Of a stretch of 64,000 nt of DNA, positions 3,994 through 60,588 are shown one piece after another. Made by a program: the position numbers and the translations under genes. The notes under the pieces were generated by a model. It was not told the origin of the DNA. It did no database searches and saw nothing but the letters and a program-made list of their open reading frames with translations. Positions within the stretch are counted from its first letter, which is position 1. Every line of letters begins with the position of its first letter. Source of the stretch: a phage; the sequence record PZ091942.1; one strand, given 5' to 3'.

Positions 3994-4069
3994 GCACCCT
4001 TAGCTCAATGGATAGAGCAGCGACCTTCTAAGTCGTTGGTTACAGGTTCGAGTCCTGTAGGGTGCACCA
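3994..4069 (+). tRNA. tRNA-Arg (anticodon UCU)
   Basis: Cloverleaf read by eye: acceptor GCACCCT/AGGGTGC, D-arm GCTC-AATGGATA-GAGC, anticodon stem GCGAC/GTCGT with loop CTTCTAA, T-arm ACAGG-TTCGAGT-CCTGT, encoded CCA. Confidence 0.85.
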
Positions 4070-23098: not shown

Positions 23099-23122
23099 TT
23101 GGTAGTAGATATGATAACTCTC

Positions 23123-23131
23123 AAATGTATA
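23123..23131 (+). promoter_or_regulatory. AAATGTATA promoter-like motif
   Basis: Near-copy of TAATGTATA motif, 37 nt upstream of ATG 23169. Confidence 0.3.
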
Positions 23132-23168
23132 TACAGTATAAGAATATTGTATGAAACAGGAGAGAGTT

Positions 23169-23498
23169 ATGTTAGATTTGAGTAAAGTGGCCCCGCCATC
23201 TGAAGAGATTAGCAAAGCTAAAGTTATGCAGCAGTTCTACCATCGGGATATGCTTGGTCGTTATATCAAGAATCGTGATGTTGTTGCATGGTCTATTGGA
23301 AATCAAGGTTATCTTCTCAAAGTGTTGCAAGTTACTGGCTCAACAGCCAAGCGTGTTAAGGTGTATGACCCTGAAATGGGGCGTTCTAAGTCTGTAGACC
23401 CACAGAACTGCATCGTTATTACCCAGCAAGTAATGGATAATATTGAACGCAATGTAGCGAACTCAACTAACTTAGAGGGAGAATCTCCAAATGCATAA
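23169..23498 (+). CDS. hypothetical protein
   Basis: ATG with AGGAG RBS (track start 23151 lacks RBS). Confidence 0.5.
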   Translation: MLDLSKVAPPSEEISKAKVMQQFYHRDMLGRYIKNRDVVAWSIGNQGYLLKVLQVTGSTAKRVKVYDPEMGRSKSVDPQNCIVITQQVMDNIERNVANSTNLEGESPNA

Positions 23499-27226: not shown

Positions 27227-27404
27227 AATGTTTTAAATGTGAATCAACTCTTCTCCATTTGAACTCGAAAGTAATACGGGAGCTTGCCAAAGGCTCCCCG
27301 ACTAAAGGGAAGAATAAGAAGTTTGTCGAAATTAAGGTTATAGGTATACATTGTTCAGAGTGTAAATCCTGTAGCTTCTTATATGAAGAACACGGAGGTA
27401 GGAA

Positions 27405-28331: not shown

Positions 28332-28402
28332 GGCTGGCAACTAAAGCCACCCTCTCATAATGTATACTCCTTAGTGTACACTGATATGTTAAGGAGTTGT
28401 AA

Positions 28403-28717
28403 ATGACTGATAAGGCTAAAAGAGATTATGCACAAGAACGAAGAACTGCAATCGCAAGGGGTGAGACCGGCGTTGGTAGCAAGAGCGGAGATGCTCAGCG
28501 CCACCGTGCACGTCGCATCGTTGAAAAGCGCGATGGAAAAGCTGCTGTCCGAGGTAAAGATGTTGGACACAAACGATCAATCAAGTCGGGAGGTTCTAAT
28601 GCGTCAAGTAACTTACGTGTTGAATCAATCTCTGGAAATCGCTCGAACGGCGGCAAAAGTGGAGATCGTGCTGGAAAATCAGCAGGCGGTCGCAAAGGAG
28701 CTTTAAGCTCAAGTTAA
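28403..28717 (+). CDS. basic Gly/Ser/Lys/Arg-rich protein
   Basis: AAGGAG RBS; A/T-biased third positions (unlike overlapping frame 28428-28706); terminator immediately downstream. Confidence 0.45.
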   Translation: MTDKAKRDYAQERRTAIARGETGVGSKSGDAQRHRARRIVEKRDGKAAVRGKDVGHKRSIKSGGSNASSNLRVESISGNRSNGGKSGDRAGKSAGGRKGALSSS

Positions 28718-33484: not shown

Positions 33485-33627
33485 ACGATATAAAGTCTGG
33501 CTAGACGAAGGAGCTGAGTATCCTGATGGTTCTGGCTGGAAAGTGATTCTGGAAACAGACGACATGGAGGAGGCTGAAACGAAAGCTGAATCCTTCAACT
33601 ACTCATATTATGAGGACACATACGAGA

Positions 33628-34206
33628 ATGGCTGAAGTTTATTTTGCAGGTGATGGTCACCTAGGCCATCGTAACATCTGTAACTTTAGGAAGAAGTTTA
33701 GTAGTATTGAAGAACACGACAAAGCTATCTTAGCAGCGTTTGACCATGTTACTAAACGTGATAAAACTTTCTTTACAGGTGATTGGGTGTTTGAGAAATA
33801 TGCACTTGATATTATCGCTGAAGTAAAAGGAGAGAAGCATCTTGTCTTAGGAAATCATGACAGATTAGAACTTCTCCCTGATATGATGAAAGTCTTTAGA
33901 CACATCAGTGGTGATTATAAGTACAAAGAGTTTTGGGTAACTCATATTCCTATTCACTCTGATGAAATGAGAGGAAAGTATAATATCTATGCTCATACTC
34001 ATAACTCTACTATCAAAGATTGGAGATACTTTTGTACTTCTATGGAACAAATTGATTACAGAGCTGTGTCTCTGCAAGAGATTAGAAAAGAGTTTGATAA
34101 AAGAAAGGAAGATGAACTTAATCTTCTTACTAAACAGAGAGAATCTAATCTTCAGTTTCAGAGAGAAGTTAAGTATACTAATCTAAATCAGTTTATTGAA
34201 TGGTAA
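33628..34206 (+). CDS. calcineurin-like metallophosphoesterase (Ser/Thr phosphatase-like)
   Basis: GDGHLGH, GDWVF, GNHDR, AHTH metal-binding motifs; start at second ATG of track ORF. Confidence 0.65.
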   Translation: MAEVYFAGDGHLGHRNICNFRKKFSSIEEHDKAILAAFDHVTKRDKTFFTGDWVFEKYALDIIAEVKGEKHLVLGNHDRLELLPDMMKVFRHISGDYKYKEFWVTHIPIHSDEMRGKYNIYAHTHNSTIKDWRYFCTSMEQIDYRAVSLQEIRKEFDKRKEDELNLLTKQRESNLQFQREVKYTNLNQFIEW

Positions 34207-34415
34207 GTTAATTAGTTTTCTTTTGATTTTAATAGAGAATCAAAGTCCTAGGAGTCCTCAACCTAAATCAAGGATTTCCTTAATTCTCTATTTTTATCTC
34301 GCAGGTGTCTCCTGCCCTTCCGGTAGTCTCTCAATTTCTAACAAACTTATGAGAGGTGGTTGTCCGCGCCTTATAGTCGTCGGTCCCGTGCAATAGTTTT
34401 ACTAGCTATACCATA

Positions 34416-34424
34416 TATACATTA
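34416..34424 (-). promoter_or_regulatory. TAATGTATA promoter-like motif (minus strand)
   Basis: Exact reverse-complement copy of the motif in the 34207-34554 intergenic region; no ORF start downstream. Confidence 0.25.
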
Positions 34425-34486
34425 CTGTTTGTTATTATCTACTACCAAAAAGGTTATAGTATAATAGAACCTTATCTGTATAGGTG

Positions 34487-34495
34487 TAATGTATA
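34487..34495 (+). promoter_or_regulatory. TAATGTATA promoter-like motif
   Basis: Exact motif 59 nt upstream of SSB ATG; TATAAT at about 34460-34465 nearby. Confidence 0.35.
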
Positions 34496-34554
34496 TAGTA
34501 TACCAACCGCTCAAAGAGAGCAACAATCTTAAATTTATATAAGGAAATATTAAT

Positions 34555-35295
34555 ATGTCTATGATCCCTGAACTGTCTGTATCCCGTAAATCCAACTACG
34601 ATGTAATCCCTGATGGCGAGTACGAAGCACGCATTGTTCGTGTAGTAGGTTTAGGTGTTCACAATCGTGACCCTTGGATTGACCCTAAGACCAAAGCAGT
34701 TACTCCTAAGAACCCAGCTTTCCGTATGGACTTGGCTTTTGAACTGATTGGCGTGGATGCAACAGGGATTGATAATGAAGGCAAACCTCTGGACCCTCGT
34801 CCTGCTTGCCAGTTTAAAACTTTCGATGTAAACCCACGAGCTAAGAATTCTGGTATTCTGAATTTGATTAAAATGATCGACCCAAGTGTTCAAGCACTGA
34901 AAGGTGATTTGGGTTGGTTTAAAGATATGCTGTTAGGTCAGCCTGTTAACATTCTGGTTAACTCCTATGTAAACAAAGCTGGGGAGAAGAAAAATTCTAT
35001 TAAGAGTATTACTCCAATCCCGACCAAGTATCGTGATGCAGTAGGTGCTCCTCGTAGCGACCTTATCTTCTTCGAACCGTATGCTGAGACTGATGCTAAC
35101 TTAACCGCTTATCAAGCTATGTTCCCATTCCAACGTAACCTTCTGACCCAAGCTAATGATGCTAAGAACATTCCTCTGGCTGGTCGTGAAGTTACTCGCG
35201 CTTCTGATACTGAACAGAAAGATGCGACTCCTAGTATCCCTACTATTAATGAAGAGCCGCAGTCTACCTTTGAAGAAGATGATAGCCCTTTCTAA
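34555..35295 (+). CDS. single-stranded DNA-binding protein (putative, acidic C-terminal tail)
   Basis: AAGGAA RBS; C-terminus ...TFEEDDSPF resembles the conserved acidic SSB tail ending in Phe. Confidence 0.55.
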   Translation: MSMIPELSVSRKSNYDVIPDGEYEARIVRVVGLGVHNRDPWIDPKTKAVTPKNPAFRMDLAFELIGVDATGIDNEGKPLDPRPACQFKTFDVNPRAKNSGILNLIKMIDPSVQALKGDLGWFKDMLLGQPVNILVNSYVNKAGEKKNSIKSITPIPTKYRDAVGAPRSDLIFFEPYAETDANLTAYQAMFPFQRNLLTQANDAKNIPLAGREVTRASDTEQKDATPSIPTINEEPQSTFEEDDSPF

Positions 35296-36092: not shown

Positions 36093-36743
36093 ATGAAGAA
36101 AAAGACAACACCTACACGCTATCGTATTCATGGCATTCCTATTAAGTATTATCCAACCTTCGATGAATTCTATCGAGAGAACTGGAAAGTTGTGCATAAG
36201 TATTTTATGTATGACATTAAAGATTATCACGAAGCAGAGGATGTTGCTCAGGAAGTGTTACTAAACGCTTGGCGTTTTGTGTTTGCAAAGCAAGAAGAAC
36301 TTCTGCTCACTGATGAAAAAGATATTGAGCACATGACTTATCGTGTCAAGAATATCATCTGGTCGATTCGTTCTAATCGCCAGACAGTTGGAGACCGACG
36401 TATCTACTCTATTCCAGAGGCTGATATGTTTAGACCTCCTGAGATGAATTCATGGGAAAGCCCTTTAGAGATTGCAATGGATAAGCATGACTCTACTGGA
36501 GACCCATTCTTGGAATCTAGAATCTTTTTCTTCTTCCAAGACTTAAGTGATATTATGGATACCAAGAAAATGGCAAGCATGTTCTCTATGCTCTTCCTTG
36601 GAATACCTCATGATCACATCCAGCAGGAGCTGGGAATTTCACACGGAACTTTCTATCGCCGTTATGCAGAGAATCGTGATCTATATGAAGCGGTAGTAGA
36701 GAAGCACTTTGATAAAGAAGATCTTCAAGGGATGATTCAATAA
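36093..36743 (+). CDS. sigma-70/ECF-family sigma factor (putative phage sigma factor)
   Basis: TTAAGGA RBS; region-2-like [13 protein letters not shown] and C-terminal [23 protein letters not shown]. Confidence 0.55.
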
Positions 36744-39206: not shown

Positions 39207-39245
39207 GCCCCCTTCCTTTTTACAGGTTGGGGGCTTTTCTTGTTT
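39207..39245. terminator. bidirectional terminator at convergence of the two modules
   Basis: GCCCCC / GGGGGC stem with 16-nt loop; T-rich on plus side and A-rich upstream, so U-tracts on both strands. Confidence 0.5.
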
Positions 39246-42200
39246 ACTCCTTAGCTCGAACTCTAACACGGAGTTTAGCTTGACGCTTACCTCTCTCCAA
39301 CTTGTCAGACAGAGAACCACGTTTGACTTTCAACTCTCCCTCGTCATTATACTTCTCCAAGAACTGTAAATACTCTTGTCGAGTAGTTGTCTTGTAAGAA
39401 GGAATCTTAACATCAGGATTCTCTTCAATCACACGTCTAATCTTCGCTACATCATCTCGCCCTAAAAGTTTCCCTTTAGCTTGTTCAGCAGTAGAACCAA
39501 AGATTTTCTCCAGTGCTCTAGATTTGTTACCACCCGCTGAAGCAGCACCAAGTTTCGCAATAGCAGAGTAATCGTCAGCACTAAACCAAGCCACTGGATT
39601 ATCTCCATATTGTTTCTTGTTCTCCGCAGCAGTTTGTAAAGCACGCACAAAGCGACGGTTATTACCAGCTTTGTCAGCACCATGAACCCTATCTAGAACC
39701 TCCGCTACACTAGCCAGCTCCTGCAAGTCTTTCCCTTCGATAAAAGCTTTCTCTGCTTTGTTAGCAAAGTCATCTTCCTGCTTCTTAATACTTTCCAGTA
39801 TATCAGAGGAGGCTTGAGATCTTTCATCTTCCGGCAACGCCGAACGAACTTTCTCCATTTCCAACTCTTCATCCTGAAGTTTCTTCAACCCAGAATCTAC
39901 CTTCTTCGCATCTTCGATAGCTTTCGAAGTGTCTGCATCCACCTCTACCTTTCCATCCATATCACCAGTTGCCTTAGCAATATCTTTCTCGATTGGTGTC
40001 ATCTTCTCAAAATCCTTAGCAAACTTAGAGATATCAGATTCAATACGAGAGCGAGCATTCTGGTGCTCAGTAGGAGTCATGGGTTTCTCCAGAAGAGAGT
40101 AACGGTTATCCATATAAGAACCTGCAAAGATTTCTGCATCTTCCTTAGGAATGCCCTTATCCTCCATAGAACGCATCAGGCGCTTGTGAATGTCATCACG
40201 TTGACGTTGTACTGCCATACGATCATTCTCTGCTTCCTGAGCTTCCTTGAGCTTCTTATCACGCTGTACACGAGAGTCAATGTCGAATTTACGGTTCATC
40301 TCTTCCGCTTGCTCATACATCTTATTCCACTTAGCTTCACGAGCATCTTCTTCCGCTTCAGTGAGTCGACGTTTACGGTCGATGTAATCACTCTCTGCGT
40401 TGTGGATACGTTCAATGATACTACGGAAACGCTCTGGTGGTACAGGAGAGTTCTTCTCATGGTGAGCTGCTAACTGTTTCAGCGTACGACCTTCCTGAGC
40501 TTCACGTACTGACTCTGGCAGATCTTTCATCAGTTTCTCCATCTCCGATTTCTGAGCCGCTATAGCTTCGAGAGACTGCCTTTCTGTCTCTACCGCTGCC
40601 TTGGCATCACTACGAGCCTTAGCCCTGTTACGGAGCGTATCAAGACGTTCCTGACGTGCTTGCAGGTGTTTAGCTGCTGCTTCGTACTGAGAGTTCTTAT
40701 TAGCTTTGTTGAACATGTTAACTTCACGGTTATAGGTGTTGATAAAGCCATCCCATATATCCTTCATCTGTCCCACTTCCAAAGCATCTTCCCTTCCAGC
40801 CCTCTCTGAAGCTTTAAACTTCCCATCTACAAAATCTTCCATCATCTTACGCATAGCATCTTTCTGAGCTGGACGTAATGGCTCTGCATCAAGAAGTGTA
40901 TTGATTTCACTGTGTAACTCTTTCTTCTGGTCAACCAGTTTAGGGGCATCAGCTTTGTCAATCTTCTTATTCTCTGCAAGAGCTTCCTCATACAGCTTGT
41001 TAAATTCATCATCACGTTGTTTCTGATACAGACGTTCAGACCTACGCTTCAGTGAATCCAAACTAGTCACGTTCCCACCAATACCTTTCTCCTCAGCACG
41101 TAATGCCTTGGTAGCAATATCAGAAGGCAGACCACGTTCCTTAACCCAATCAGCAAACGAAGAACGAACACGTTGTGACTTAGCAGCAGCAATACCCTGT
41201 TGAGAAGCAAGCTGGTTACGAGCCATCTCAGCATGACGTTCAGAGTTGTTCGCTTGGTCTTCCTGACGAATACGACGCATCAACTCTTTCGGGTCACCTT
41301 TATAAGAAAGGAAGTTCTCAGCTGTAGCTTTAGCCTTCGCACTTGCCGTATACAGAGAACGAGCAAAGCGATCTGCACGGTCTTTAGTAGCTTGACGAGC
41401 AGCACTTGACATAGCAGCCAGACGTTCGATTCCAGTAGCCGGTTTAACAGGCTCAGCCTCAACCTCAGGAGCTTTAGGAGCACGGGTAGGCAATGGCTCT
41501 GCTTGAACAGTTGGCTCCTCAGGGGCGCTCTCAGCAGCCTTGCTGGCCTCTTCTGCTTCTTGACGTTTACGAGCTTCTGAAACAGCACGACGTTGAGCAA
41601 CTAAATCTCTCGCTGTAGTAACTGGTTCTTGTGGCTCTGGCTCGGGAGTTGGCTCTTCCTGAATCTTACTAGCTTCGGCTTCCTGACGTCTAGCTTGAGC
41701 TTCCTTCAAAGCACGTCTTTGTGCGACCAAATCACGAGCAGTTAAAGGAGAGGTTTGAGGAGAGGAAATTTCTTCCGTCACAGTAGTAGCAGAAGGCTCC
41801 CGAACCGGTTCGATTTCCGGGTCATTTTGAGTTCTAAATTTAATGTCATCAACTTCAGGTTCTTTCTCCATCGCAGCACGAGCTTCATCAGCCTGAGCAC
41901 GAGCACGAGTTACTTCCATATCACTACGAGCAAGAGAACGAATAGCTTCGCTGTTAGCCGCCTGTTGACCTTCACGTTGAGAGCGAGCACGGTCAGAACG
42001 GAAACGGTTGAGAACATGTTTAGCAGCACCAAGTGGATTCTTAATCAGAACCGGAGGAGCAGCTTCTTTGAAACCGTCAGCAGTTAGAGAGGTCCAACCA
42101 CGGTCTTGGTTACTCATTAACTTAGCTGTGTTATTCAGAGTGAAAGCATCTTGGATTGGGTTGAAACCTTCAGGCATACCTTTGAGTTTCTTCAAACCAC

Positions 42201-43662
42201 CAATAGCAGTTTTCATCTCTGGAGATACATTATCAGAAAGCTTCTGTAGTTCAGTAGCTTTCTCAATGAAGTTATTGAAGTCTTCACCATCACGAGCTTT
42301 GAATCGGTTAGCTTCATTATAGAAAGTTTTGTAAGCATCAATGAAGTCACGGTCAGCTTGAGTACGGTTCTTAATATCCATAGCACTACCGGTAAAGTCA
42401 CCACTAGCACGAGCAGATGTTAATTCACGGTCAAGATTATCTAGTACGTCAGATAGAGACTTAGTGTTGTCTTTCGTATAGTCAGCCATTGCATCTTTCA
42501 TTGCTACAGCTTGTTTCTGGTTATGTTCGTTATCAGCGTTCGCTTTACCTTGACGCTTATTAGGAGCAGCAAGAGGATTCAAACCCGGAACATTAGAACG
42601 ATCTTCCAGAATAGTAGCAGCCTTCTCAGCACGACCTTGGTCAGTGTTCAGGATACGCTGAGCAGCAGGAGAATCCATAGCCACAGCATCAGTAACACGG
42701 AAACCATTCTCGTCCAGAAGGTTAAGGGCAGAAGCAGTGTTAGCATTGTCAGCTTTAGAATACGCTTCACGTAATTCATCAGCATTAGTAGCACTACGTA
42801 TCGCTTCATCTTCAGCAGCAATATCTGTCTTCACATGATCAGGAGTACGGTCAAAGACTTGAGGACTAGGACGACTTATCAATCCATGAACCCCACCGAT
42901 AGCCCCACCGTAAGCAGCACCCATCGCACCTTCTTCTACAGCACCTTCAATAATATTAGCAAGAGTAGTGTCATCACTATATTTGTTCTGTGCTTCAGCA
43001 GCACCTACAAGAGCACCACCTTTAGCACCAGCCACTGCGTTAGATGCTACACTCTGACCAACACGACCTAGAGTAGTAGAAGCAGTGCCTGTCATCCCCG
43101 GAAGAATCTTCTGAGCTGCAAAGTTAGCACCACCAACTAAACCAGCATCAAGAACAGACTTCTCTTCACCCTCTTCTGGAGTTTGGTCTGCATAAGCTCT
43201 ACCTGTCTCACGAGCTGCAATAACAGCAGCAGCTACAGCAGGGTTAGCAACTGTCAAACCGATATCAGCAGCGACACCAGCATACTGACCAGCTGACTTC
43301 CCAATCCCATCTTCAATCTTAGAGAGACGTTCTTCTAATAAATTCTTAGAGTTCTCTTGAATACGCTTACCATAGCTTGTCTGTGAACTAGTTAGATTCT
43401 CTCCAATCTCAACTAATCCACCAATACCTCTAGCAGCACTAGCTGCAATATTAGCACCACCTGATTGAATAGCATTGGACACACCTTGAGCAAAGTCACC
43501 AATTAATCCCGGTTGTTCTTCTTGTTTCAGAGCTGGAGCCGCCTCAGGAATTGTTCCACCTGCTGCTTTATATTGTTCTCGCATCTGAGACTGTTGCTCA
43601 GGGGAGGCATTCAAATACGCAGGGCTTTTAGAAGCTTCTTCCCACGGTTTTAAGTTAGCCAT
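39244..43662 (-). CDS. large virion protein (1472 aa; internal/ejection or tape-measure-like, function unassigned)
   Basis: AAGGAG RBS and TAATGTATA motif upstream; Gly/Ala-rich N-terminal segments then very long charged coiled-coil. Confidence 0.6.
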   Translation of the reverse strand: MANLKPWEEASKSPAYLNASPEQQSQMREQYKAAGGTIPEAAPALKQEEQPGLIGDFAQGVSNAIQSGGANIAASAARGIGGLVEIGENLTSSQTSYGKRIQENSKNLLEERLSKIEDGIGKSAGQYAGVAADIGLTVANPAVAAAVIAARETGRAYADQTPEEGEEKSVLDAGLVGGANFAAQKILPGMTGTASTTLGRVGQSVASNAVAGAKGGALVGAAEAQNKYSDDTTLANIIEGAVEEGAMGAAYGGAIGGVHGLISRPSPQVFDRTPDHVKTDIAAEDEAIRSATNADELREAYSKADNANTASALNLLDENGFRVTDAVAMDSPAAQRILNTDQGRAEKAATILEDRSNVPGLNPLAAPNKRQGKANADNEHNQKQAVAMKDAMADYTKDNTKSLSDVLDNLDRELTSARASGDFTGSAMDIKNRTQADRDFIDAYKTFYNEANRFKARDGEDFNNFIEKATELQKLSDNVSPEMKTAIGGLKKLKGMPEGFNPIQDAFTLNNTAKLMSNQDRGWTSLTADGFKEAAPPVLIKNPLGAAKHVLNRFRSDRARSQREGQQAANSEAIRSLARSDMEVTRARAQADEARAAMEKEPEVDDIKFRTQNDPEIEPVREPSATTVTEEISSPQTSPLTARDLVAQRRALKEAQARRQEAEASKIQEEPTPEPEPQEPVTTARDLVAQRRAVSEARKRQEAEEASKAAESAPEEPTVQAEPLPTRAPKAPEVEAEPVKPATGIERLAAMSSAARQATKDRADRFARSLYTASAKAKATAENFLSYKGDPKELMRRIRQEDQANNSERHAEMARNQLASQQGIAAAKSQRVRSSFADWVKERGLPSDIATKALRAEEKGIGGNVTSLDSLKRRSERLYQKQRDDEFNKLYEEALAENKKIDKADAPKLVDQKKELHSEINTLLDAEPLRPAQKDAMRKMMEDFVDGKFKASERAGREDALEVGQMKDIWDGFINTYNREVNMFNKANKNSQYEAAAKHLQARQERLDTLRNRAKARSDAKAAVETERQSLEAIAAQKSEMEKLMKDLPESVREAQEGRTLKQLAAHHEKNSPVPPERFRSIIERIHNAESDYIDRKRRLTEAEEDAREAKWNKMYEQAEEMNRKFDIDSRVQRDKKLKEAQEAENDRMAVQRQRDDIHKRLMRSMEDKGIPKEDAEIFAGSYMDNRYSLLEKPMTPTEHQNARSRIESDISKFAKDFEKMTPIEKDIAKATGDMDGKVEVDADTSKAIEDAKKVDSGLKKLQDEELEMEKVRSALPEDERSQASSDILESIKKQEDDFANKAEKAFIEGKDLQELASVAEVLDRVHGADKAGNNRRFVRALQTAAENKKQYGDNPVAWFSADDYSAIAKLGAASAGGNKSRALEKIFGSTAEQAKGKLLGRDDVAKIRRVIEENPDVKIPSYKTTTRQEYLQFLEKYNDEGELKVKRGSLSDKLERGKRQAKLRVRVRAKE

Positions 43663-43698: not shown

Positions 43699-43707
43699 TA
43701 TACATTA
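43699..43707 (-). promoter_or_regulatory. TAATGTATA promoter-like motif (minus strand)
   Basis: Exact motif 36 nt upstream of ATG at 43662. Confidence 0.3.
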
Positions 43708-59777: not shown

Positions 59778-60524
59778 TTATCTGTTTCTACGAATGCCGT
59801 ACACTTCACGAGAGCTATTAAGACGGCTAATGGTTCGAGGGATTACAAGAGGTGACCCTGAGTATTCTGCTTTCTTACTCTGCTCAACAATTTCATCTAG
59901 AATTGCTTTACCAAGAGCAGACCACTTCTGCACTCCATTATCATCTTGAACAAACAAAGAAGCATGGCGTAGAGTAAAATAGAGAAGCAGTTCAGGAGCA
60001 ATAGTCAGAATAGCACTTGTATCTTCGTCTTCATGGAATTCTGGAGGGTCAGCATAATAACTCAAAACCACAGCATTATCAGCAGGAATCTCAGGTGCTC
60101 CATCATCAGGATAAATAGGAGTGTCTGCATCAATGAGTGGGTAGAACATAAAGCGACTACCTAAACGAGCAAACATCACATCACCTTGATTCCAGTTGGA
60201 TGGGTTAATAGAGTTATTTCTTTTCATCCAATCAAGTTCTTCAGGAGAGGTTGCTCGGAACATCATCCCATTCGAAGCTCTCATAATCCATTGTGCTTCT
60301 AAGAAGTCAGGAGGGATAAAACAGATACCATCCTTAATATCTAAATATACTTCTTTTTCCAGAGGAGGGATTCGTAAGTTACGATAGATTTCTTTCTCTG
60401 CAAAGTTAATAAAGTTTGGAATCTGATTAACAAATTCATCATCATCCCTATCGGCCCAGAGCGACACAGCCTTTTTAAGCCAGCCATAGGTATTGATAGG
60501 GTAAGCCACTTCAGGCATCGCCAT
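59778..60524 (-). CDS. virion structural protein (hypothetical, 248 aa)
   Basis: AGGAGG RBS; translationally coupled to tail fiber gene. Confidence 0.5.
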   Translation of the reverse strand: MAMPEVAYPINTYGWLKKAVSLWADRDDDEFVNQIPNFINFAEKEIYRNLRIPPLEKEVYLDIKDGICFIPPDFLEAQWIMRASNGMMFRATSPEELDWMKRNNSINPSNWNQGDVMFARLGSRFMFYPLIDADTPIYPDDGAPEIPADNAVVLSYYADPPEFHEDEDTSAILTIAPELLLYFTLRHASLFVQDDNGVQKWSALGKAILDEIVEQSKKAEYSGSPLVIPRTISRLNSSREVYGIRRNR

Positions 60525-60588
60525 AATTGTGTCCTCCTAGTTGTGTATAGACAAAGAGAATACATTACACTTGGTCCTGTATAGGTCT

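Follow-up and report, generated by a model that had tools for sequence, protein, structure and literature searches.

The gap between the phosphoesterase gene and gene 40

We analysed a window of 64,000 nucleotides (nt) of phage DNA (record PZ091942.1; the window is this whole stretch) with a focus on positions 34,207 to 34,554, an intergenic gap that appears to hold two back-to-back promoters for the phage sigma factor gp36, the leftward of which points into a structured region free of genes. The closest match was the Escherichia phage ECBP2, with 95.8% identity over 1.7 kb around the locus, and about 100 further phiEco32-like podophages (Gordonclarkvirinae: Kuravirus, Suseptimavirus and relatives) also matched these 1.7 kb. 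The genome in the window is collinear with phiEco32 and ECBP2; in the orientation used here, early and middle genes occupy the plus strand as far as about 39 kb, and the minus strand carries the late genes. In phiEco32 (NC_010324.1), the homologous gap lies between phi32_41 and phi32_40. The genes on which the analysis leans are the following:

33610-34206, plus strand: calcineurin-like phosphoesterase gene, left of the gap (PHROG 547, Pfam Metallophos)
34555-35295, plus strand: homolog of phi32_40 (gp40), resembling a single-stranded DNA-binding protein (SSB), right of the gap (PHROG 6599, function unassigned)
36093-36743: homolog of gp36, the phage sigma factor gene (PHROG 1740, RNA polymerase sigma factor, 8.8e-45; sub-threshold match to Pfam Sigma70_r2)

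The initial annotation of this DNA had placed the gap between a phosphatase gene and an SSB gene. Both the PHROG and the Pfam assignment agree with the former. The latter was supported in part, by the SSB label that some records carry and by the acidic C-terminal tail FEEDDSPF, which is typical of SSB tails, while the gp40 homolog gave no Pfam match and no sequence match in the PDB. An exonuclease gene lies further downstream of the SSB-like gene. The phosphoesterase gene has a mosaic 3′ end, its product having 198 amino acids (aa) in the window, 192 aa in ECBP2 and about 212 aa in phage Paul, and most other relatives have a phosphoesterase of 168 aa together with one or two tiny open reading frames (ORFs) homologous to phi32_42 and phi32_41. 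Whichever variant is present, a conserved block described below starts just past the upstream stop codon (relatives including L001, L002, L005 and L010).

The gap itself holds no credible ORF, in agreement with the initial annotation. The plus strand has ORFs of 66 aa (with a TTG start) and 34 aa and the minus strand one of 57 aa, which lies upstream of the antisense transcription start predicted below; each frame is broken by 1- or 2-nt insertions or deletions (indels) among relatives. Downstream of the predicted start, the minus strand has no ORF of at least 25 aa. No tRNA or tmRNA was found in the region. The sole Rfam or ARAGORN hit in the window was a tRNA-Arg (anticodon UCU) in the early region, at 3994-4069 on the plus strand.

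Two back-to-back gp36 promoters, one known and one predicted

When E. coli RNA polymerase carries gp36, the sigma factor of phiEco32, it uses promoters with the single-element consensus tAATGTAtA (PMC8948821; also PMC12276001), and transcription starts 6-8 bp downstream of this element (PMC8948821). The published list has six of them, the late ones in front of genes 6, 13 and 26 and the middle ones in front of genes 40, 58 and 68 (PMC4331800, PMC4281155). In the 2025 cryo-electron microscopy structure of the open complex that RNA polymerase forms with gp36 and gp79 on the gene-68 promoter P68, the N-terminal domain of gp36 reads -14A, -13A, -12T and -11G, and its C-terminal domain contacts -37G and -34A (PMC12276001). 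The motif TAATGTATA had been noticed on both strands of the gap, and both copies were found, within a perfect 12-nt inverted repeat GTAATGTATATA that has 60 nt between its arms. All sequence elements named in the initial annotation were located at the given positions or a few bases away, and they exceed chance expectation, with four exact copies of TAATGTATA in the window against 0.55 expected and none of 100 shuffles reaching four. The promoter elements and the sequence between them are:

34416-34424, minus strand: antisense -10-like element TAATGTATA, an exact match to tAATGTAtA, with -11G at 34420
34437-34447, minus strand: antisense -35 element TGGTAGTAGAT, with -37G at 34446 and -34A at 34443
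34425-34486: AT-rich spacer between the back-to-back promoters, 27-32% GC, hypervariable except for the -35 element
34487-34495, plus strand: -10-like element TAATGTATA of the P40 ortholog, found in phiEco32 upstream of phi32_40 and invariant in relatives
34502-34554, plus strand: predicted 5′ untranslated region (UTR) upstream of gene 40, with the predicted start of P40 at about 34502

On the plus strand, the motif belongs to the ortholog of P40, a mapped middle promoter, and is hence already known, because the homologous phiEco32 gap lies directly upstream of phi32_40. Only -34A of the two -35 contact bases is present in this copy. The predicted 5′ UTR of P40 contains a long invariant stretch, AACCGCTCAAAGAGAGCAACAATCT, and is 89% conserved overall, against 90.5% for the start of the gene-40 coding sequence.

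The minus-strand copy is apparently the new part. Its -35 element is identical in sequence and in register to that of the P68 ortholog (23100-23110), and its -10-like element is closer to the consensus than the AAATGTATA of the P68 ortholog. When the composite TGGTAGTAGAT-N12-WAATGTATA was searched for in the 64 kb, it occurred at two sites, the antisense promoter and the P68 ortholog, against 0.00 expected; in a scan of IMG/VR, the composite promoter turned up only at the P68 and antisense sites of this family and in unrelated coding hits. Among about 35 loci taken from GenBank phages, IMG/VR and metagenomes, we then distinguished 22 different variants of the antisense promoter. The -35 sequence TGGTAGTA was invariant in all relatives examined, the antisense TAATGTATA was kept in 21 of the 22 variants, and the 12-nt spacer was constant in length and hypervariable in sequence. 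Invariant elements at a fixed spacing around a near-random spacer suggest a promoter under selection, of which this pattern is typical.

All sequence-level features of the gp36 class are present at the antisense site, namely the consensus, -37G and -34A in register and a sigma gene in the same genome. The site is not upstream of a middle or late gene and is followed by no minus-strand ORF, but that criterion is contextual, not mechanistic. Apparently, this is a seventh gp36 promoter that the literature does not list, and it was perhaps overlooked because the published motif search took in only the gene-sense strand of intergenic regions (PMC4331800, methods). A full-text literature search, whose scope did not extend to the primary phiEco32 papers, returned no mention of an antisense transcript, a non-coding RNA (ncRNA) or a replication origin in the phiEco32 group. 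By analogy with P68, we placed the predicted antisense start at the A at 34409, 11 nt downstream of -11G. The leftward promoter is in our judgement probably active and would give rise to a non-coding transcript.

The distribution of the element was then followed. Conservation in related phages had been named as a check in the initial annotation, and both the promoter elements and the conserved block are indeed kept across phiEco32-like phages. Searches of IMG/VR and JGI metagenomes with patterns derived from the block found phiEco32-like contigs only. The distant phages 7-11, ECO319P1, Proteus P59 and Aeromonas LAh_8, which keep the pair of gp40 and sigma genes, have only 55-103 bp at this position, and 7-11 has the sense promoter P48 only. 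The whole module of long spacer, antisense promoter and block is thus confined to phiEco32-like phages, as judged from the genomes searched.

Several further sites of this promoter class lie in the window. The P68 ortholog (23100-23131, plus strand) stands upstream of 23151-23498, reads TGGTAGTAGAT-N12-AAATGTATA and was confirmed against phiEco32 itself; relatives share its spacer ATGATAACTCTC, whereas that of the antisense promoter is hypervariable. An exact TAATGTATA at 28358-28366 (plus strand), upstream of 28403-28717, is probably a P58-type middle promoter with TGGCA at the -37 register, and an imperfect hairpin GGGCTGGC...GCCACCC overlaps its -35 region. Two sites on the minus strand are probably late gp36 promoters, each with no G at -37: TAATGTATA at 43699-43707, upstream of a 1472-aa ORF (39244-43662, minus strand), and TAATGTATT at 60559-60567, upstream of 59778-60524 (minus strand). 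A further near-consensus motif in antisense orientation, CAATGTATA at 27345-27353 (minus strand) in the gap 27227-27404, has G at -37 and A at -34; it was dropped as not conserved in phage CHD5UKE1, where the matching gap is annotated as a coding sequence, and is probably a chance occurrence. Near it, a hairpin GGGGAGCC-TTTGGCAA-GCTCCC (about 27276-27300) is conserved, with one compensatory change from G-C to A-U.

A structural variant of the promoter pair was seen in ES17-type phages (L012, at 517-693, and also L042, L067-L071 and L075), in which 146 nt are inserted between P40 and the antisense promoter. The insertion contains a 47-codon ORF, annotated as ES17_37, without a Shine-Dalgarno sequence, and a palindrome ACTACC-TTCC-GGTAGT that puts GGTAGT at the -37 register of P40. 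The antisense -35 element of the ES17 group reads TGGTAGTATAT.

The predicted minus-strand RNA and the conserved block

The RNA predicted to start at 34409 would be about 180 nt long in this phage and about 155 nt in phiEco32, and is predicted to run from a 5′ hairpin through an exchangeable hairpin module and a GC hairpin to a 62-nt hairpin. Its parts, with the plus-strand feature that overlaps them, are:

34393-34409, minus strand: 5′-terminal hairpin AUAGC-loop-(A)CUAU, beginning at the predicted +1 (AUAGC-loop-GCUAU in most relatives)
34324-34388, minus strand: variable module, in the window version A, with two hairpins (CUCUCA/UGAGAG and a GC-rich one)
34301-34315, either strand: small GC hairpin GCAGG-N5-CCUGC, -7.9 kcal/mol, z about -3, stem invariant, loop centre T or G
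34231-34292, minus strand: 62-nt irregular hairpin, the 3′ side of the predicted ncRNA, -20.7 kcal/mol, minimum-free-energy structure equal to the centroid
34231-34323, either strand: conserved 93-nt block made up of the GC hairpin and the 62-nt hairpin, mean pairwise identity 95.8%
34231-34300, plus strand: candidate weak intrinsic terminator of the upstream operon (62-nt hairpin and UUUUUAUCU), 15-25 nt past the upstream stop codon

RNA structure prediction, the other check that had been named, showed that the region folds, and more stably on the minus strand: the z-score of the whole-region fold was -3.18 on the minus strand against -1.68 on the plus strand in the window, and -2.25 against -1.19 in phiEco32. 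The 5′ hairpin shows covariation. Across 10 distinct variants 98% of cells pair, and two of the five pairs show compensatory changes, position 5 being C-G, U-A or A-U and position 2 changing from U-A to G-C. At position 4, G-C becomes G·U in the phiEco32 group, where the plus strand would have A·C. The covariation score was 0.351 against 0.152 for shuffles, none of 500 of which reached it, and slid controls scored about 0.

Following the 5′ hairpin, the module exists in two non-homologous versions that are distributed as a mosaic relative to the flanks, and both are predicted to form hairpins. Version A is found in the window, ECBP2, MN05 and the ES17 group, and version B in phiEco32, SU7, TH42 and others. 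The pairing CTCTCA...TGAGAG described in the initial annotation is present in version A at 34328-34355, and in one pair of this version C-G is replaced by U-A, a compensatory change. The stem of version B is 7 bp long and includes two G·U pairs, at which the plus strand would have A·C, and its variation is confined to the loop; the alignment-fold energy of version B was -14.5 for the minus strand and -7.6 for the plus strand. Judging by the aligned sequences, G·U pairing points to the minus strand as the RNA strand. We also considered version A and the GC hairpin as CRISPR-repeat mimics (RNA anti-CRISPRs) and rejected this: the resemblance to E. coli type I-E and I-F repeats, judged by eye, is partial (10 of 12), and the second stem arm is missing.

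The conserved block varies little. Ten of its 96 alignment columns vary, while the first 170 nt of the gene-40 coding sequence are 90.5% identical with 44 of 170 variable, and the upstream flank is 66% identical. A block more conserved than the adjacent coding sequence fits constraint on both strands. Coding is excluded as its cause by single-base indels among relatives. The 10-nt inverted repeat reported earlier is there, as AATAGAGAAT (34231-34240) and ATTCTCTATT (34283-34292), and its arms extend to 13 nt at 92% complementarity. The inner hairpin AAGGA-TT-TCCTT that had been proposed within it cannot form, as its loop would have 2 nt, and the predicted folds pair these bases with other partners. 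The GCAGG hairpin is real, with a loop (TGTCT) of 5 nt where 6 had been given. On the plus strand the 62-nt hairpin reaches -15.2 kcal/mol with a centroid of -8.8, and its z-score is about -3 whichever strand is folded (plus strand, -2.95). On the minus strand, G·U pairs lengthen the outer stem from 10 bp to 15 bp, and an A-to-G change in phage XT32 retains pairing on that strand only.

Read on the plus strand, the same hairpin followed by a T-run would make a plausible but weak, AU-rich terminator of the upstream middle operon. The initial annotation had called a likely plus-strand terminator here, and the T5 run (TTTTTATCTCG, 34292-34300) is present; what follows from it is at best a weak candidate. 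The U5 run is invariant and the plus-strand hairpin has -15 to -17 kcal/mol, but the terminator scan made no call, because the base of the stem is AU-rich and the loop, at 42 nt, is long. The hairpin is not a terminator of the antisense RNA, because A-runs flank it on the minus strand.

If both strands of the block function, only simultaneous double changes would be tolerated. This could account for a block that is nearly frozen beside a 5′ hairpin that, constrained on one strand, drifts through G·U pairs.

The block also contains ATTTCCTTA (34274-34282), which is perfectly complementary to TAAGGAAAT (34540-34548) in the Shine-Dalgarno region of gene 40, and 7 of these 9 nt are retained in the phiEco32 clade. 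Such a pairing could mask the gene-40 ribosome-binding site in plus-strand transcripts that read through, although a match of 9 nt could be due to chance.

A candidate cis-antisense RNA, its alternatives and known systems

Promoter elements, conservation, the absence of an ORF and strand-biased structure signals make a gp36-dependent antisense ncRNA locus the most likely interpretation, and from them we infer a transcript, its 3′ end and its function. Taken as a whole, an explanation by two back-to-back gp36 promoters, of which the leftward one yields a structured antisense ncRNA, seems to us somewhat better than an even bet. P40 would drive the operon headed by the SSB-like gene 40, which includes the sigma gene, and the leftward promoter would fire from about 34409 in the middle and late phases. 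Because no intrinsic terminator follows, the 3′ end would come from Rho-dependent or collision-dependent termination and subsequent trimming back to the large hairpin. The upstream middle operon, which runs convergently, has the terminator-like hairpin at its 3′ end, and the antisense RNA would be complementary to this hairpin without mismatch. Once gp36 is active, the RNA could alter the processing or stability of that mRNA 3′ end (RNase III type), and convergent transcription could hold down read-through into the P40 operon as gp36 builds up. This cis-antisense action is the function that we prefer, though in absolute terms we rate it as less likely than not. The locus has the features of a cis-antisense small RNA of the OOP, sar or GadY kind in its promoter (by motif and conservation), its lack of an ORF and, by geometry, its overlap with a convergent 3′ hairpin. 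Given that P40 is already known, the antisense promoter and a cis-encoded ncRNA locus dependent on a phage sigma factor would be what is new here.

Measured against the initial annotation, leftward transcription from the minus-strand motif through structured, ORF-free sequence has gained partial support, from the gp36 consensus, the -35 element in register, conservation and strand-specific structure signals. The small RNA locus proposed there keeps its minus-strand promoter and its structure, while the plus-strand motif turns out to be the promoter of the P40 mRNA, and a discrete small RNA is something we infer, the minus strand having no terminator.

Several observations weigh against a cis-antisense RNA. 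The metagenome contig L067, the lone exception among the antisense-promoter variants, carries -11G>A. The 5′ hairpin is marginal, at -2.4 kcal/mol in phiEco32 and -0.1 in the window, where a C·A mismatch leaves it essentially unfolded. The block varies too little to show covariation, and its structure, which would suit either strand, is therefore unproven. On the minus strand the large hairpin lies between A-runs with no U-run after it, and no conserved terminator was found further on. Finally, the upstream gene differs among phages, so that no specific coding sequence can be the target and the shared terminator block is the only possible one.

One alternative assigns function to the plus strand only. 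The block would then be a terminator or 3′-end stabiliser, and the reverse TAATGTATA and its -35 element would be kept for a reason at the DNA level, such as recruitment of the gp36 holoenzyme, stimulation of P40 via supercoiling or insulation by collision, the RNA being functionless. The hairpin and T5 run after the upstream stop codon in every genome, the plus-strand z-score of the hairpin and the lack of strand-deciding covariation in the block all agree with it. It leaves unexplained, however, the compensatory changes and G·U pairs of the hairpin at the predicted antisense +1, the minus-strand bias of version B and the conservation of about 30 nt past the T-run, and the hairpin was not called by the terminator scan. 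We regard this account, including the DNA-level reasons it invokes, as unlikely.

Equally unlikely in our estimate is a replication origin, in which the divergent gp36 promoters would unwind the AT-rich spacer, the leftward transcript would serve as R-loop or primer for the leading strand and the block would be a loading or hybrid-stabilising site. A promoter without a gene beside replication-type genes (the SSB-like gp40 with its acidic tail and the exonuclease further downstream) would suit an origin, as would the 27-32% GC of the spacer between the promoters, and the searchable literature describes none for the phiEco32 group. At 58% purines the predicted RNA is moderately rich in them, with local skews reversed, but this richness is unexceptional, lying within the top 10% of windows. 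No compositional signal of an origin was seen either, as the cumulative GC skew tracks the direction of transcription and turns only where gene clusters converge, at about 39 kb. Past the antisense start the DNA has 48-50% GC and is structured, hence not easily unwound, and the AT-rich stretch lies between the promoters instead. Phages 7-11, ECO319P1, P59 and LAh_8 share the replication genes yet do not have the whole element. Moreover, structure and partial covariation are more to be expected of a riboregulator than of a primer, ColE1 RNA II being an exception. That the back-to-back promoters mark an unmapped phiEco32-like origin with an R-loop or primer RNA, or, as a variant, that the two modules are riboregulator specificity alleles in phage competition, we rate a shade lower still.

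Slightly less probable again is a trans-acting riboregulator or protein sponge, whose block or module would have as its partner an RNA of host or phage or a protein such as the GGA-binding CsrA. The primary sequence of the block is itself under constraint, and the two alternative modules resemble a swappable specificity domain. On the minus strand the block has five GGA motifs (top 1% of windows) and the full RNA seven (top 1.8%); the enrichment does not carry a CsrA sponge, which we rejected, as the motifs lie mostly within predicted stems, not loops, and the phiEco32 block holds only four. The searches for partners were likewise negative. Within the 64-kb window, complementarity did not rise above chance (matches of 9-11 nt only). 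Comparison of 201 nt with 5,426 complete E. coli genomes gave no match, a short seed match being below detection at that size. Rfam 15 gave no match in the region at gathering or permissive thresholds, the best hit there being an unrelated snoRNA at 19.7 bits against a threshold of 40. An overlooked small protein is very improbable, since the short ORFs that exist, annotated in a few relatives (4E8 g037c, ES17_37), have all their frames broken by 1- and 2-nt indels and the wholesale swap of the module and show no conserved start or Shine-Dalgarno sequence.

phiEco32 is a model for the takeover of host RNA polymerase by a phage sigma factor, gp36, with its co-factor gp79, and its transcription map in the literature searched has six gp36 promoters, all serving genes. 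A seventh promoter, conserved in the family, the best match to both elements and aimed into a structured non-coding region, would add a regulatory layer to this map. For the Gordonclarkvirinae, which are used in phage therapy work, the RNA would be the first ncRNA candidate, and it could lead to the replication origin or to a way of uncoupling the two middle operons. If the RNA is absent or inert, the region would be an ordinary spacer made up of a terminator and a promoter.

Among known systems, the phiEco32 gp36 promoters themselves (P68, P58, P40, P26, P13 and P6) are alike in the identical tAATGTAtA, in the TGGTAGTAGAT -35 element of P68 and in the sigma factor encoded; the antisense site differs in opposing all neighbouring genes, in having no ORF downstream and in being absent from the six in the literature. 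The OOP RNA of phage lambda is a 77-nt transcript that is made by the sigma-70 holoenzyme, ends at a clear intrinsic terminator and overlaps the 3′ end of cII. Like it, the predicted RNA would be a short non-coding transcript whose promoter lies between co-directional genes near replication genes and which runs back over the 3′ end of the upstream message; unlike OOP, this locus has no terminator, would use a phage sigma factor and overlaps a terminator-like non-coding block. GadY of E. coli is a host Hfq-associated small RNA with a sigma-S promoter that pairs with the 3′ UTR of gadX. Both would be intergenic, cis-encoded antisense RNAs that pair with a convergent mRNA 3′ end and could direct its processing, but GadY belongs to the host, and we found no similarity of sequence or structure between it and the predicted phage RNA. 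The T4 origins ori(uvsY) and ori(34) and the primary origin of T7 were mapped experimentally; the T7 promoters are gene-directed, and those of T4 are followed by a defined unwinding element. The present locus shares with them a phage-specific, middle-type promoter, a transcript not needed for coding and a position near replication genes and AT-rich DNA, whereas the sequence downstream of its promoter is structured and relatively GC-rich.

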